Source: a virus
Reading direction: 5' to 3' (one strand)
Length of the DNA stretch: 64,000 nucleotides
IMG/VR virus record: IMGVR_UViG_3300035670_000062
Location: 32,001-96,000 of that record
This document shows, piece after piece, positions 31,364 through 55,695 of the stretch. Made by a program: the position numbers and the translations under genes. Under the pieces are notes generated by a model, which did no database searches, was not told the DNA's origin, and worked only from the letters and a program-made list of their open reading frames with translations. Numbering within the stretch: the first letter of the stretch is position 1; every line of letters begins with the position of its first letter.

Positions 31364-33454
31364 ATGAGTAAGAAAATAGAATTTAATATAAATAATATAG
31401 GACTTAATGAAATAGGTAAAACATTAAATCCAACTATAGAAGATACTTCCGAGAATGTGAGGAATAATTATATGAATGAATGGAATACTAATGTTACATA
31501 CCCCATATACACTCCCGAAATTGACTCATCAGATATAATAAAACTATTTATTAAAAATGAAGAAGAAAGTTTTTTTATTAGATTAGGTACTTTATTAGGA
31601 TTCATTAATGATAAAATAATTCCTAAGATAGAATCAACCTCCCAACCATTAATTACTATAGATACTGATGAAAAAACTAACATATGTTATGTTATAGATA
31701 ATATTATATCTAACGATATAAGAAAAGTAATAATAAAAAATGATAGATTTTATAATGGAACTGAAACTGAAGATTTTTTATTTACTGGGTTAAATGATTT
31801 TATAGTAGAAGAGTATGATAGTAGTACATTATATGGTCAAATAATGAACATTTATATAAATTTTAATGAAGTGTTAACGTTATTTGATAATGTAGATGAA
31901 AAAAATGAAATTAATTTATTTGAAATTTTATCCTCTATATGTAAAATGATAAATCAATGTTTAGGAAATGTAAATAATTTAGAACCTATAATTGATGAAG
32001 AAAATATTACTGTAAAAATTATTGATCAAACACCTATTCCAAATATAGATCTAATAGTTAAAAAACTAAACCCTCAATACCTACAACCAGAAGATAATAA
32101 AGAAGTAATATTACAATTATATGGATATAATAATAATAAATCTAACTTTATAAGAAATATAAATCTTGTTACTGAAATCTCAAAAAACTACTCAACGATG
32201 ATATCCATTGGTGCTACATCTAATGGAGCTATTCCAGGAGCTGAATCAACAGCATTTTCAAAATGGAATGTAGGACTAACAGACCGATTTAAAACTCAAA
32301 TAATAGATGCCAATGCGAATACGGGCTCATTAGAAGACCAGAACTCAGTAGTAATAAATAATTATATAGATTTTATTGCTCAAACATTCCTCAAAATAGG
32401 ATTAAATCAATCCCCACCATTTGAAGTAAACACAGAAGTAGTAGATACTAACACTACAGTAATAGAAAACTTTTACAAATACGCTCAAGCTCAATCTTCA
32501 AAAAATGAAGAAAATTCAATTGAAAGTTCAGTAGGATTCTTACCATTTAATTTAAAAATAGAAATGGATGGAATAGGAGGTATCAAAATATATAATAGAG
32601 TAAAAACAGACACTAGATTTCTCCCATCCAACTACCCAGATACTTTACAATTTATAATAACTGGAGTGAACCATAAGATATCAGATAATGATTGGGTAAC
32701 ATCATTAGAAACAATAGCAACTATAGATAATAATCAAGGTAAAAAAAATATATCTGTAAAAGAAATATTAAAAAATTATTCTACTCAAATAGCAATTATA
32801 CAACAACGACAAGCATTAGAAGCTAGAAACCAAAGTACTCGAAGACAAGACTCTTACAACAATTCAGATTGTTCAGAAGATTCTAAAATACCACTATCAG
32901 ATAATTATAATTTAGCACAACTTTCATGTAATACCGATTATGCTAAATATTCATTACCTAAAATAAAAAAAACAGGAAATTCCTATTATGATCCTTCAAG
33001 AGAAGAAATAATTCAAAATCTTACACAATTAGCAAAAAATATTTTAGAACCATTAAGAAAAAATTACCTTATAAATAATGAAAATGATATCTCAATAACA
33101 GCAGGATATAGGAATCAAGGTAAAATAAGCCAACATGAAATAGGTCAAGCGGTAGATATCCAATTTTATTCCATAAGAAAACAATCTATATCTGACCAAA
33201 ACAGATTAATGTTAGAAAGAGCTAAAGAAATTGAAAAATTATTATTTCCAAATTACGATGATTTTATATTAGAATATAAAATAATAGGTACACAACAACC
33301 ATGGATTCATATATCTTACAGAACAAACCCATCACCACGTAAGCAAAAACGGACAGCTATTACGTATGGAGACCCCCAAAAGCCTACAGTAGAATATTTT
33401 GCTGGATTTCTTAGTTTTGAGGATGCTAAAAAAAAGATGTCAAAAAATAAATAA
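31364..33454 (+). CDS. tail/baseplate hub protein with C-terminal peptidase M15
   Basis: ITAGYR...SQHEIGQAVDI...WIHISY zinc-peptidase motifs; EMDGIGGIKI...V.H.I..NDW.T hub-like segment. Confidence 0.75.
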   Translation: MSKKIEFNINNIGLNEIGKTLNPTIEDTSENVRNNYMNEWNTNVTYPIYTPEIDSSDIIKLFIKNEEESFFIRLGTLLGFINDKIIPKIESTSQPLITIDTDEKTNICYVIDNIISNDIRKVIIKNDRFYNGTETEDFLFTGLNDFIVEEYDSSTLYGQIMNIYINFNEVLTLFDNVDEKNEINLFEILSSICKMINQCLGNVNNLEPIIDEENITVKIIDQTPIPNIDLIVKKLNPQYLQPEDNKEVILQLYGYNNNKSNFIRNINLVTEISKNYSTMISIGATSNGAIPGAESTAFSKWNVGLTDRFKTQIIDANANTGSLEDQNSVVINNYIDFIAQTFLKIGLNQSPPFEVNTEVVDTNTTVIENFYKYAQAQSSKNEENSIESSVGFLPFNLKIEMDGIGGIKIYNRVKTDTRFLPSNYPDTLQFIITGVNHKISDNDWVTSLETIATIDNNQGKKNISVKEILKNYSTQIAIIQQRQALEARNQSTRRQDSYNNSDCSEDSKIPLSDNYNLAQLSCNTDYAKYSLPKIKKTGNSYYDPSREEIIQNLTQLAKNILEPLRKNYLINNENDISITAGYRNQGKISQHEIGQAVDIQFYSIRKQSISDQNRLMLERAKEIEKLLFPNYDDFILEYKIIGTQQPWIHISYRTNPSPRKQKRTAITYGDPQKPTVEYFAGFLSFEDAKKKMSKNK

Positions 33455-44490: not shown

Positions 44491-44518
44491 GTAAATAACT
44501 CAACATATTTATAATAAA

Positions 44519-44977
44519 ATGATAGATCAAAATAAATGGATATATAGAAAAAGTAATATAATTAGTTTAGATGATTTTGGTAATAATACTCCATTTGGTT
44601 TTATATATATTACAACACATAACCCAACAGGTAAAAAATATTTAGGTAAAAAGTCATTATTTCATACTTTAAATAAAAAATTAGGTAAAAAAGAATTAGC
44701 TGAACAACCTATTACTAGAGGTAGAAATAAATTAACTAAAAAAATAATTAAAGAATCTGATTGGTTAAATTATTATGGTTCTGAAGAATTCATTAAACAA
44801 AAAATTAAAGAAAAATGTCAACATGAATTCCATAGAGAAATTGTAGATATAGCGTTAAATAAAAAACATTTGACTTATCTTGAAACTAAACATTTATTTA
44901 TAAATAATGTATTAGAAAGCGATAAATGGTTAAATTCAAATATTCTTGGAAAATTTTATAAAAATGATTTTAATTAA
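44519..44977 (+). CDS. GIY-YIG-like nuclease
   Basis: GFIYITTHNPTGKKYLGKK...SDWLNYYGS...F.REI...E. Confidence 0.75.
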   Translation: MIDQNKWIYRKSNIISLDDFGNNTPFGFIYITTHNPTGKKYLGKKSLFHTLNKKLGKKELAEQPITRGRNKLTKKIIKESDWLNYYGSEEFIKQKIKEKCQHEFHREIVDIALNKKHLTYLETKHLFINNVLESDKWLNSNILGKFYKNDFN

Positions 44978-45000
44978 GCTTGGTTATTCAAGCTTTTTTT
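44976..45000 (+). terminator. intrinsic terminator overlapping a possible promoter
   Basis: AAGCTTGG-ttat-TCAAGCTT followed by T tract. Confidence 0.6.
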
Positions 45001-46741: not shown

Positions 46742-47494
46742 ATGATATCATTAATAAAACCATATAAAGAATTAAATAAAAAACCTAAAGCCATATTCAT
46801 GGCAGGACCTCCTGGTTCAGGTAAATCATTTATATTAAATAAATTTTCAATACCATCTAAATTCCAAGTAATTAATGTAGATGATATTTATGAAGAATTA
46901 CTTAAAACTCAAATAGGTAAAATGGATTTGAAAAAAATGAATCTTGATGAATTATCTAAAACAGGGGAATTAATGAATCAAGCTAGAAAACAGACAAAAG
47001 AAAAAGAAGAAGATTTATTAATACAAAAACAAAATGTTGTAATTGATGGAGTTGGTGCATCATCAAAAAACTTATTAGAAAAGAAAAAATATATTGAATC
47101 ATTAGGTTATGAAACTTTTATGATTTTAGTTTATGTATCTCCTATAGTATCCTTAGAAAGAAACCTAAAAAGAGATAGACAACTACCAACCAGAGCAGTA
47201 TTGGATAGTTGGGTTAAAGTAATAAATAATATTGATACATATAAAAACGAATTTAAGAATAATATAATAATAATTAACAACAACCCTTCAGAAATAACTC
47301 CATTAGATATTGATACTATATTTAACCAATACCCAGACCCAGAAGGTAAAGAGAAAACACCTGAAGAAATAGAAAAAAGAAATAAACTAAAACAATCTAT
47401 AATAGATAATATAAAAGTTTTAATAAAAAAAGAACAATCTTTTACACCTGATTCTCAAATCCAACCTAAAATCAATGAGTTCATTAGTCAATAA
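46742..47494 (+). CDS. P-loop kinase (zeta toxin/AAA_33-like)
   Basis: MAGPPGSGKS, INVDD, VVIDG, SLERNLKRDR. Confidence 0.8.
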   Translation: MISLIKPYKELNKKPKAIFMAGPPGSGKSFILNKFSIPSKFQVINVDDIYEELLKTQIGKMDLKKMNLDELSKTGELMNQARKQTKEKEEDLLIQKQNVVIDGVGASSKNLLEKKKYIESLGYETFMILVYVSPIVSLERNLKRDRQLPTRAVLDSWVKVINNIDTYKNEFKNNIIIINNNPSEITPLDIDTIFNQYPDPEGKEKTPEEIEKRNKLKQSIIDNIKVLIKKEQSFTPDSQIQPKINEFISQ

Positions 47495-49445
47495 TTTAAT
47501 TAATCCTATATTAGAATCTAATCAAGAATATACTGTATATTTTGATGTAGACGATACTCTAACTAATTACACTGAAAACTTACTAACAACTAATATTAAA
47601 GATAAAAAAATATTAGAAATAAGACAAATAAAACCATCAGACACAGCATCCAATAAAGAATTTTGGGTAAATGCAAAATGGTATCCTGGTTCAAAAGAAA
47701 TGTTTAATTACATAAAATCAAAATTCCCAAACGTAAAAATATTATCTGCAGTACCTGAATTATCAAAACTTAAACAACAAGAAACTGGTAATAAATTCTA
47801 TAATGAACCTATAGAAGGTAAATCTGAATGGTTAAATAAAAATGTAGGTAATATTGAAAAGATATGGGTCAAAAATGGAAAAGAAAAAGCAGAATATGCT
47901 TCACCTACATCTATATTAATTGATGATAAATTAGAGAATATAAAACATTTTGAAGATGCTGGTGGAATAGGTATATTGATGGATAATCCTAAAAATGTAA
48001 TCAATAAAATAAATACATTATCCAACACATTAAACGAATTAACAAATCGATCTTTACCATATCAGCAAATTATACGAGATAAGTATAGTAGCGTTTTAGA
48101 TAAACTGTTTTTAATTCCATATAATGATAATTATGTTGAACTAAATATTATAAAAATAAAACCTGAATTTAGAGATAAAGGATATGCTACTAAAATATTA
48201 AATGATATTACTAAATGGGCTGATGAAAATAATAAAATATTAACATTAGACCCAAATGAAACTTTTGGATCAAATAAAGATAGGTTAATTGATTTTTATA
48301 AAAGATTTGGATTTAAATTAAATAATGGTAATGATAAAAAAGCAGATAATGAAATGGTAAGAACACCTCAATTATCATTAAATGAAAATGCTACTTATTC
48401 TAATAATATAAATTATAAAAATGAAATTAAAGAAATTACTAAATTTTTATTAGATAAAGGAGAAAACATTCAACCATTACCTAAAGTTACATTTAAAAAC
48501 GGAGATAAAACGAATGCTAAGGATTTTATGGGAAAAACAGCATATTATGACCCTAATTCCTCTGAAATTGTGTTATACACCGAGGGTCGCCATCCTAGAG
48601 ACATAATAGCTTCATATTTACATGAATTAATCCACCATATACAAAACATAGAAGGTAGATTACATAATATACAAACACAAAATGTCCATGAAGATGAATC
48701 ATTAGAATTACTTGAAAGAGAAGCATATGAAAAAGGAGGTATGTTTTTGAGATCTTATAAAGATAATAAAAGGATAATAGATATACCTAAATTTAATTAT
48801 GAAAAAACAATATATCATGAGTTATATGATACTTTAAATGAAATAACTTTATCTAAAGAAAATGCTGTTGGTATAAATGGAGATTTAGAAGGAGGAGATT
48901 TTAAAGTAGGAGATATAACTTATGTATATTCTATAAATAACATAATAAATCCTTATAAAGATGAAGGTAAATTTTATAATATTTCTTTTTATCCTGATGG
49001 AAATATAAATGCTGAACCACTAGAAGGAAAGGAAAATTATATTAAAATTTTATCTACAATATATAAAATTGTAGTTGATTTTGCTGAAAAAGTAAAACCT
49101 GAATATATAGGAATTGCATCTATGGATAATAACGAAAATAAAAACTACCACAGAATATATGCAAATTTAACAGATAATAAATACAATAGGATACCTGGGT
49201 ATTTTAGAAAAGATGTTAGTAAAGAATTTATAACTCCTCAAGGTAAAGGTAGATTTGTAGTATTAAAAAGAAACAAAAATATTGAAGAGGATCTTAAAAA
49301 AAATGAAATTAAATATTGGGCTATTTATTATTCAATATATGAAAAATTAAAAGAAAATATTAATTATTATTCATTTTTAAAAGACAGATTAAAGGGAGAA
49401 CAATTAAGCGCATTAGATTATTTTTACAATATTTTAACTAAATAG
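47475..49445 (+). CDS. multidomain protein: HAD nucleotidase + GNAT + HExxH zincin + unknown domain
   Basis: YFDVDDTL...ILIDDK; PEFRDKGYATKIL...FYKRFGF; LHELIHHIQ...EREAY; domains separated by LNE. Confidence 0.8.
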   Translation: MSSLVNNLINPILESNQEYTVYFDVDDTLTNYTENLLTTNIKDKKILEIRQIKPSDTASNKEFWVNAKWYPGSKEMFNYIKSKFPNVKILSAVPELSKLKQQETGNKFYNEPIEGKSEWLNKNVGNIEKIWVKNGKEKAEYASPTSILIDDKLENIKHFEDAGGIGILMDNPKNVINKINTLSNTLNELTNRSLPYQQIIRDKYSSVLDKLFLIPYNDNYVELNIIKIKPEFRDKGYATKILNDITKWADENNKILTLDPNETFGSNKDRLIDFYKRFGFKLNNGNDKKADNEMVRTPQLSLNENATYSNNINYKNEIKEITKFLLDKGENIQPLPKVTFKNGDKTNAKDFMGKTAYYDPNSSEIVLYTEGRHPRDIIASYLHELIHHIQNIEGRLHNIQTQNVHEDESLELLEREAYEKGGMFLRSYKDNKRIIDIPKFNYEKTIYHELYDTLNEITLSKENAVGINGDLEGGDFKVGDITYVYSINNIINPYKDEGKFYNISFYPDGNINAEPLEGKENYIKILSTIYKIVVDFAEKVKPEYIGIASMDNNENKNYHRIYANLTDNKYNRIPGYFRKDVSKEFITPQGKGRFVVLKRNKNIEEDLKKNEIKYWAIYYSIYEKLKENINYYSFLKDRLKGEQLSALDYFYNILTK

Positions 49446-49447
49446 TT

Positions 49448-49936
49448 ATGTTTAAGAAAAAAAACTTATATAAAATATTCTGTGATTTAGATGGGACTTT
49501 ATCTAATTTTGATAAAAGATATAAAGAATTAACGGGCTATTCCCCTACTACATATAGACAAAAATTTGGTAAAACTTCATTTTGGGATGTTATAGACAAA
49601 AAACATAAAGAGCAATTTTGGTCTGAGATGGAATGGCTGGAAGATGGACCTATATTATGGGATTATATTAAAAAATATAACCCAACAATAATAACAGCTC
49701 CATCCCCAGACATATCATCAAAATTTGGTAAAAGAAAATGGTTAGAAAATCATCTACCTAACTCTCCATTTATAATTTGTCCTAGACAAGAAAAACAATT
49801 ATATTCAAAACATAATCACATCCTAATAGACGACCACTCAGAAAATATAAAAGAATGGTCTGCTCAAGGAGGTATAGGTATTTTACATTCTGATGCTAAA
49901 TCTACAATAGAACATCTTAAAAAATTAGGTATATGA
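49448..49936 (+). CDS. HAD-family 5'(3')-deoxyribonucleotidase-like protein
   Basis: FCDLDGTL, ITAP, GKRKW, ILIDD, GGIGILH. Confidence 0.85.
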   Translation: MFKKKNLYKIFCDLDGTLSNFDKRYKELTGYSPTTYRQKFGKTSFWDVIDKKHKEQFWSEMEWLEDGPILWDYIKKYNPTIITAPSPDISSKFGKRKWLENHLPNSPFIICPRQEKQLYSKHNHILIDDHSENIKEWSAQGGIGILHSDAKSTIEHLKKLGI

Positions 49937-55074: not shown

Positions 55075-55695
55075 TATATTTACAATAAAAATATGAAAAA
55101 ATCTGAATTAAGACAAATTATTAAGGAGGAAATTATAAGAGAGTTATTTGATACAAAAGAAAAAATCAGATGGCGTGAGGGTGAAGATTCAGATTTCACT
55201 GCTACCTTTACTGGTCCTAACGATCAGAAATACGTAATAGACATTACTTCCTTAGAATGGTTAACATTACCTAATAGTGCTACTATTACTGCAAGTAAAC
55301 TTTTACCTGACGCAGCTATTGAAATGTGGGAAGACGGTCAAGGATATCATGTTGAATTTAGAGATGTTAAGAAAGGTAAAGGTATTACTGGGTTAGGTGG
55401 TACTGATACAGCAAAAATCTTCGGTATTGTTATTAATGCGTTAGTTGATAAAATGAAACGTGAAAAGGCTGAGCTTGTATTCTTTTCAGCCAAAGAGCCT
55501 TCTAGAAAAGAGTTGTATAAAAAAATAGCACCACTTATAGCAACTAAGTTAGGAATGAAGCAAGTTAATAATGGTACCTATTATTTTTTATATCTTTAAA
55601 TTATGAGAAAATACATAAAAATAAGAGTGGATGTAGAGGACCTCTATGTAAAACACCTGGTAAAGGTAAAAAAATGAGGTAAAATAAAATAATAT
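55029..55695 (+). repeat. ~49-bp imperfect direct repeats (55029-55077, 55646-55695) flanking an MKKSEL gene
   Basis: ATGTAAAACACCTGGTAAAGGTA identical over 23 bp, then a degenerate extension. Confidence 0.85.
55093..55599 (+). CDS. MKKSEL-leader protein
   Basis: MKKSELRQIIKEEIIRE; body resembles the 4th domain of ORF 47475. Confidence 0.8.
   Translation: MKKSELRQIIKEEIIRELFDTKEKIRWREGEDSDFTATFTGPNDQKYVIDITSLEWLTLPNSATITASKLLPDAAIEMWEDGQGYHVEFRDVKKGKGITGLGGTDTAKIFGIVINALVDKMKREKAELVFFSAKEPSRKELYKKIAPLIATKLGMKQVNNGTYYFLYL

Follow-up and report, generated by a model that had tools for sequence, protein, structure and literature searches.

Domain composition of the protein encoded at 47475-49445

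The stretch analysed here, referred to as the window, comprises 64,000 nucleotides (positions 32,001 to 96,000) of the IMG/VR virus record IMGVR_UViG_3300035670_000062, and the open reading frame (ORF) at 47475-49445 of the window encodes P0001, a protein of 656 residues. The source genome, that of a T4-like marine phage, is a single contig of 113,098 bp with a GC content of about 26%, a tRNA array, and genes that are almost all located on one strand. P0001 is composed of a 14-residue leader and five modules in the order H-G-Z-C-T, and its joints, three of which read Leu-Asn-Glu (LNE), are probably sites of proteolytic processing, as far as sequence comparisons can tell. An earlier note, made from the letters of the window, had described the protein as four unrelated modules that are joined at LNE sites and cut by the head-maturation protease. 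The protein is built as follows (the arrow marks a joint):

47475-49445, + strand: P0001, 656-residue multidomain protein (ORF; coordinates include the stop codon)
47475-47516, + strand: N-terminal leader, residues 1-14 (MSSLVNNLINPILE), ending in I-L-E (residues 12-14)
47517-48038, + strand: module H, predicted HAD-superfamily 5'(3')-nucleotidase-like domain, residues 15-188, ending in T-L-N-E
48039-48386, + strand: module G, small GNAT acetyltransferase, residues 189-304, ending in S-L-N-E
48387-48767, + strand: module Z, predicted HExxH zincin, residues 305-431, with HELIH at 48621-48635 (residues 383-387)
48768-48842, + strand: spacer or leader of module C, residues 432-456 (IIDIPKFNYEKT...TLNE)
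48843-49289, + strand: module C, predicted GNAT-fold domain, residues 457-605, ending in N-I-E-E
49290-49442, + strand: module T, three-helix domain in the AlphaFold2 (AF2) model, residues 606-656, preceded by IEE↓D

Sequence-profile searches of NCBIfam and the PDB with P0001 gave nothing significant, and Foldseek with the whole model against the PDB returned only weak HAD and GNAT matches. Since the whole-model search was weak, the fold ranges were taken for each domain from VIA-align. The HAD phosphatase, the GNAT acetyltransferase and the zincin of the earlier note were all recovered. Module H carries the DxDxT motif I at residues 24-28 (D24-V-D-D-T28) and matches phrog_2643 over residues 15-188 (5.5e-19). 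Its fold aligns to 3cnh over residues 15-183 (Z 8.8, 133 residues aligned, root-mean-square deviation 5.1). Having both motif I and the HAD Rossmannoid fold, module H is predicted to be an NT5C-type nucleotidase. Module G scores above the cut-offs of two Pfam profiles, PF13508 (Acetyltransf_7; 2.7e-6, 28.1 bits against a cut-off of 27) and PF00583 (Acetyltransf_1; 1.7e-5, 25.5 bits against 20.7). Its GNAT profile matches lie within residues 213-304, about 100 residues, with the Pfam matches at 215-281, and the acetyl-CoA motif A can be read from the sequence as R-D-K-G-Y-A. The AF2 model of this module is poor (predicted local distance difference test, pLDDT, below 50) because the alignment contains few homologs.

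In module Z the residues H383, E384, H387, E414, and E416 are invariant among 44 relatives, and the fold over residues 305-441 resembles Wss1 (5xbn, Z 8.0), IrrE (3dte, Z 7.7), and SPRTN (6mdw, Z 7.3). These Z-scores are middling, yet they agree with the HExxH motif and with the labels of viral models, since the BFVD matches carry, among others, the names IrrE-like, SprT-like, and 'large polyvalent protein-associated'. Pfam offers only a weak match to DUF6647 (0.042). The HExxH motif, a third ligand downstream and the modelled fold together mark module Z as a predicted zincin metallopeptidase. The spacer at residues 432-456 travels with module C in every case and is modelled as coil (432-445) followed by a helix (446-456; pLDDT about 57). 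Module C aligns over residues 460-600 to 3dns (Z 8.3), 2ob0 (7.6), 6wf3 (Naa50, 7.5), and 6bfh (AAC(6'), 7.5), and many GNATs match at Z 7.0-8.3 across the whole domain. Neither Pfam nor any other profile matches module C, and a GNAT cofactor motif is not recognisable in it. Modules G and C therefore appear to share one fold, and the count of four unrelated modules has to be revised to five modules and a leader, with module T following IEE↓D. A single chain with HAD, GNAT, zincin, GNAT-like, and helical domains contains the at least two unrelated effector-type domains that characterise polyvalent-type proteins. The leader is predicted to form an amphipathic helix (residues 2-13) with low confidence (pLDDT about 33-51).

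The fourth module had also been likened to the body of another protein of the window:

55093-55599, + strand: MKKSEL-leader protein; the body (residues about 20-168) has a GNAT-superfamily fold (AF2 pLDDT 81.7)

An 18-residue leader helix precedes the body of this protein, whose top 50 VIA-align matches nearly all belong to the GNAT superfamily (Z 6.0-7.3). The likeness thus holds at the level of the fold, both being GNAT-like, and the pattern behind it is a beta-strand, a Gly-loop, a helix, and another beta-strand. Kinship at the sequence level was rejected (hidden Markov model E 0.13, hhalign probability below 1%), and the fold class is all that the two have in common. The family of the 55093 protein is unusually conserved, with 75-89% identity in about 100 metagenomic clusters.

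Joint motifs in P0001, its relatives, and the head proteins

The ORF, the three LNE triplets, and the ILE of the leader were all found as the earlier note had them. The LNE codons at 48030-48038, 48378-48386, and 48834-48842 correspond to residues 186-188, 302-304, and 454-456, and a fifth hydrophobic-x-Glu site, IEE↓D at residues 603-605, stands directly before module T. LNE186 is located two residues past the end point of a stand-alone HAD paralog encoded by the next gene, LNE302 lies in coil (pLDDT below 50), and LNE454 forms the end of a short helix that links two confidently modelled domains. As modelled, the sites are at domain borders, none lies within a folded core, and burial inside a fold was not seen.

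With 4.57 LNE per 1000 residues P0001 exceeds the 0.60 of ordinary proteins (Fisher P 0.0098). In an AT-rich genome whose proteome abounds in Leu, Asn, and Glu, the position of three LNE at domain borders could nevertheless be a coincidence. The probability of three LNE in 656 residues at the proteome rate is only 0.025, before correction for 130 proteins, and the codons used are the commonest ones. A recombination scar at the DNA level was also considered and is not supported; such a scar is unlikely because codon usage at the sites is ordinary and because the variation of P2 is seen in the protein.

The relatives decide against chance. The family to which P0001 belongs is very large and uncharacterised, and consists of modular proteins with several enzymes from aquatic phages with T4-like heads; P0001 represents a small version of the phage 'polyvalent proteins'. 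A search of large collections yielded 766 matches of similar length and 239 shorter ones; this search was seeded with the zincin, so that the apparently constant presence of the zincin is a search bias. When the modules of 119 long relatives were mapped by BLAST, the orders were Z-C (62), Z-C-H (23), C-Z-H (12), C-Z (8), H-Z (6), and T-Z-C (4). The modules are thus permuted: Z precedes or follows C, HAD is found at either end, and T at the front or the back, in some relatives directly behind the N-terminal leader. Other partner domains are HIGH-motif cytidylyltransferase-like domains, Pol-beta nucleotidyltransferases, and DUF6934. The only cultured relative, Flavobacterium phage immuto, encodes a syntenic protein of 907 residues (immuto35A_182) whose zincin is 42% identical and whose other partners differ.

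For a junction test, starts whose upstream 15 residues were at least 40% identical were collapsed, leaving 80 distinct contexts that were compared with 2000 random-position trials. [LI]NE stands directly before the module start in 28 of the 80 contexts (random mean 0.87, maximum 5), [LI]xE in 49 (mean 3.4, maximum 12), and [LIVM]xE lies at most three residues from the start in 68 (mean 9.3, maximum 19). An analysis of alignment breakpoints that used no module definitions points in the same direction, since high-scoring segment pairs start within five residues of [LI]NE 3.2 times as often as expected from a uniform distribution. The zincin start N-A-S/T-Y-S is directly preceded by [LI]-(N/T/K/S)-E in about 35 unrelated upstream sequences. 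All 53 unique contexts of the C joint have L or I at P3, and 52 of them have E at P1, whereas P2 is variable (N, H, Y, K, G); a fixed P3 and P1 with a variable P2 is, at the sequence level, the pattern of gp21. Gain, loss, and permutation of modules at the joints, of which the earlier note had named gain and loss as a check, thus exceed chance by far in the relatives.

Modules that occur alone keep the motif as well. On contigs of 66-164 kb, solo modules retain a Met-leader of 6-30 residues that ends in the joint motif. Solo zincins of 137 residues start with MKPLTE↓NSTYS, others with MVFNIVSPVLNE↓NATYS or MKDIIKE↓QATYS, and many zincins end in NWTDSLNE↓ or NWTDTLTE↓. Solo C proteins begin with the segment of about 29 residues DIPK(F/Y)N...[LI]NE↓ITL (e.g. 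MIVDIPKYN...KINE↓ITLNP), and one of them bears an MKKSEL leader (MKKSELRQIIKE). Most long relatives share the leader M-N-x-L-x-K-x-L-I-x-x-L-L-(P)-E-E, which is placed before HAD, a HIGH-motif nucleotidyltransferase, or T. These leaders and solo forms are what cargo with a T4-type propeptide would be expected to show, and a protein of the cytoplasm that is simply a fusion would not easily account for them. A random origin of the LNE triplets is thereby rejected: none of the 2000 random trials came up to the enrichment seen at the junctions of the 80 unrelated contexts, and the sites are conserved in several hundred permuted relatives and in the stand-alone forms, so that chance hardly needs to be reckoned with.

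Some joints show further sequence features. The linker D-P-F-G-(L/I)-N-(E/A)-(L/Y)-A-x-E-L is seen repeatedly, namely between modules, in front of C-terminal HADs, and ahead of some zincins (P0006-P0029, P0057, P0069, P0091, and others). In one zincin subfamily (e.g. P0045, P0063, P0095, P0101) the joint reads [LIVM]-x-E-[NDGH]-C-G-C, whereas a second subfamily has G-G-D-D-L-Y-x-C-H-K-C-G-x-D-N in front of it. These motifs beside the zincin joint possibly represent little inserts that bind zinc.

A protease that would be suited to cutting the joints is encoded by the phage. The head module lies beyond the window, on locus L003 of the same genome, and consists of a gp20-type portal, a Peptidase_S77, an acidic scaffold-like protein, and a gp23-type capsid protein. 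The protease is:

L003:6677-7306: gp21-type S77 prohead protease (PF03420, 1.4e-24; phrog_207, 8.8e-50)

T4 gp21 cleaves after L/I-x-E (PMC9026906). The head-module proteins, all of which are devoid of HExxH, contain 2.65 LNE per 1000 residues compared to 0.60 in ordinary proteins (about 4-fold, P 0.0017), and the MKKSEL-leader proteins 2.28. In the S77 protease, KGSLNE↓S follows immediately on the catalytic domain, and the same position reads PISLNE↓G in immuto (protease immuto35A_200), GQLNE↓S in a metagenomic relative (L088), and V-K/R-E instead of LNE in three further relatives. Directly upstream of the protease, an 832-residue protein (L003:4158-6653, genome 99158-101656) has four LNE sites and two homologous repeats of about 75 residues with G-L-N-E in front of each; by its sequence it looks like a head-core polyprotein. 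Within the head module of immuto, a 73-residue protein starting with MKKSQIVKAVQEVLEE is encoded between portal and protease (L004:5696-5917), and MKKS-type leaders therefore adjoin head genes in the cultured relative.

An alternative cutter of the same joints is the embedded zincin, which could act in cis or in trans, either prior to packaging or once delivered. For polyvalent proteins, processing by zincin-like metallopeptidases is predicted by Iyer et al. 2017 (PMC5512222), and the zincin of P0001, with its polyvalent-associated labels in BFVD, is the best-conserved module with invariant catalytic residues. Modules G and Z are moreover homologous to modules of giant proteins. In Klebsiella phage ZX1, a PLxRFG protein of 3867 residues shares 32% identity with G and the start of Z over its residues 2622-2787 (E 1e-18), and the homology of G-Z extends to giant proteins of the DarB-like and N4-type RNA polymerase groups. 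A match to phrog_10691 (1.3e-9) was also obtained. However, the homologous G-Z joint of ZX1 reads REPQ-ETRMS and has no LNE. The motif follows the known rule of gp21-type proteases and is enriched in zincin-free head proteins of the same phage including the tail of the S77 protease, and the constant presence of the zincin reflects the seeding of the search. S77 is encoded in four of five long viral contigs with relatives, the fifth being a 47%-complete fragment. Because of the ZX1 joint, the zincin-free head proteins, and the co-occurrence of S77, the S77 protease is favoured as the cutter and cutting by the zincin appears improbable.

Gene neighbourhood and the possibility of an uncut enzyme

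P0001 is flanked by two genes:

46742-47494, + strand: zeta-toxin/PNK-like P-loop kinase, 250 residues (Pfam Zeta_toxin, 1.2e-12)
49448-49936, + strand: stand-alone HAD/NT5C paralog, 162 residues (Pfam NT5C, 1.3e-5; phrog_2643, 2.8e-28)

The first 20 nt of P0001 are shared with the kinase gene (frames checked). A recent frameshifted fusion of the two was rejected, the P0001 frame being open for merely 16 codons upstream. The kinase starts with MISLIKPYKE, which is similar to the MIKL(I/V)DLL leaders of stand-alone C proteins, and its C-terminal end reads PKINE↓FISQ. The HAD paralog, which the earlier note had recognised, is 28% identical to module H (E 8e-13) and has neither a leader nor a terminal LNE. 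At the nucleotide level, the surrounding 16 kb had no match among annotated phages.

Two upstream motifs were found in the genome. The late-type motif A, ATATTTATAATAAA, is located 11-30 nt 5' of structural, head, and MKKSEL genes (e.g. window 44506, 50542, 60653). The early-type motif B, TTCGTATCTTTAT..TATAAGAAA, is located 26-70 nt 5' of genes in the left 46 kb (e.g. window 1248, 5879, 13878) and hardly ever inside genes. Upstream of the P0001 cluster only the late-type motif is present (44506, 44895). A scan for sigma-70-type promoters gave no more sites than in shuffled sequences. A gene within window 44506-44995 encodes a GIY-YIG/homing-endonuclease-like protein of 152 residues (phrog_447, phrog_7363) and has its own late-type motif 13 nt 5' and a terminator-like hairpin directly past the stop codon; it may be a self-contained mobile cassette that was inserted before the primase gene.

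The neighbourhood suggests another explanation, according to which P0001 stays uncut and acts as one multidomain enzyme together with the kinase, the HAD paralog, an exonuclease, and a primase in the metabolism of nucleotides or nucleic-acid ends. (L/I)-N-E would then be a capping or linker motif that travels with the modules. The P0001 gene sits in this primase-exonuclease-kinase-HAD cluster and not among the head genes, and the cluster is syntenic in immuto, which fits a nucleotide or nucleic-acid job in the cytoplasm. The overlap with the kinase gene looks like translational coupling, and kinase and HAD domain are reminiscent of the kinase-phosphatase pair of T4 polynucleotide kinase (VIA-align Z 7.2 to 1rrc; matches to phrog_505 and phrog_415). 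In addition, the G-Z pair stays joined in the distant giant proteins.

Several further observations weigh against processing in the head. In the model, LNE186 and LNE454 coincide with the ends of helices and are not in free coil, and both could be structural. The LNE before module C is part of a well-conserved segment of 25-30 residues in which P1'-P4' are conserved too, and the triplet before module Z could belong to the start of the module itself, carried along by descent. The motif [LI]xE is common (15 per 1000 residues), and the Z joint of the immuto homolog reads RLPE↓G instead of LNE. Of the 336 [LI]NE in the relatives, 161 coincide with the start of a mapped module and 3 fall within one, but this depletion is weak evidence because the modules are homologous and not independent. 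The shared leader is frequent but not universal, and no covariation between the P2 of the protease tail and the P2 of the joints was seen across phages (LNE versus VKE/VRE). Finally, the terminator-like hairpin (44976-44995) lies between the late-type motifs and the P0001 cluster, so that the cluster may or may not be expressed late.

It is, however, hard to see how an uncut enzyme would account for Met-leaders that end in the motif on solo modules, for one leader before unrelated first modules, or for a fixed P3 and P1 around a variable P2. Nor would it explain the enrichment of the triplet in head proteins and the site past the catalytic domain of the protease. An uncut P0001 is therefore an unlikely explanation, which still carries some weight. 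As for the head-maturation protease as the cutter, one part of the claim stands, in that S77 is encoded, the joints fit L/I-x-E, and the motif is present in head proteins. Prohead entry, cutting, injection, and the service to host takeover or anti-defence that the earlier note had assumed would be further, putative steps, with the zincin as an alternative cutter and the gene located among replication genes.

Proposed processing and comparison with known systems

In the preferred reading, in which P0001 is processed in the head, the amphipathic leader ending in I-L-E would act like the capsid-targeting sequence of T4 and bring the chain into the core of the prohead. The gp21-type S77 protease would then cut after Glu at ILE14, LNE188, LNE304, LNE456, and IEE605. 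This would release the HAD nucleotidase of about 20 kDa, the small GNAT, the zincin, the GNAT-like domain, and the small helical domain, and the released pieces would remain in the head and enter the host together with the DNA. Targeting, cutting, retention, and injection as well as the role of each enzyme are inferred. The whole chain of events, cutting by S77 in the prohead followed by delivery, is about evenly balanced, judging from what the sequences offer. Slightly more tentatively, it could be possible that the family represents a plug-in cargo, in which modules with a protease motif are swapped as cassettes behind one capsid-address leader. The site would be processing signal and evolutionary seam at the same time, and one gene would deliver a changeable kit of enzymes.

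If the prohead cutting is true, a role could be given to the hundreds of members of this family, for which neither a curated profile nor a solved relative exists, and the variation in what abundant phages of ocean and freshwater inject could be explained. The rule of a leader followed by L/I-x-E joints would predict virion cargo in uncultured phages.

Polyproteins made by RNA viruses of eukaryotes are comparable in that one translation product contains short conserved cleavage motifs between its units. This is an analogy only, because proteases and domains differ and because the likely protease of P0001 is encoded separately and would act only in the prohead. Closer are the polyvalent proteins (PMC5512222), which also combine several unrelated effector-type domains including GNAT with an embedded zincin, and whose Pol-beta and other nucleotidyltransferases are found in relatives of P0001. 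Unlike them, P0001 is small (656 residues), is encoded among replication genes, and belongs to a family with HAD and HIGH-motif nucleotidyltransferases as partners. Its family has conserved L/I-x-E joints that fit the head serine protease, whereas self-processing by the zincin has been proposed for polyvalent proteins. With prohead cutting, polyvalent proteins would thus gain a concrete processing enzyme, the head serine protease instead of the embedded zincin.

In the giant phages phiKZ, 201phi2-1, and SPN3US, head and ejection proteins are processed by gp21 homologs (gp175, gp245), and the gp21-type protease removes its own C-terminal propeptide (PMC10052503, PMC9026906). As proposed for P0001, these proteases cut after Glu at a short motif, and many packaged and ejected proteins are affected; their motif has a small residue at P3, unlike the L/I of P0001. 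The reported substrates lose N-terminal propeptides, which leaves one mature fragment (PMC10052503), and a multi-enzyme chain released as separate mature products has not been reported among them. A multi-enzyme polyprotein would therefore be new.

Close parallels are found in T4. Its internal proteins and Alt, an ADP-ribosyltransferase that is trimmed at both ends, are loaded via N-terminal capsid-targeting peptides of 10 residues (PMC9026906). P0001, known here from its sequence, resembles IPI, IPII, IPIII, and Alt in the T4-type head module with an S77 protease, in the short N-terminal leader that ends in L/I-x-E, and, for Alt, in the enzymatic nature of the cargo. The leaderless HAD paralog beside P0001 resembles the situation of T4 Alt, which is found beside ModA and ModB. 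The leader sequence differs from that of T4, and the T4 cargo is a single mature unit minus its propeptide, whereas P0001 would release up to five modules that are permuted in its relatives. Cutting in the prohead would thus extend the paradigm of the T4 internal proteins and Alt from a single cargo to multi-enzyme polyproteins.

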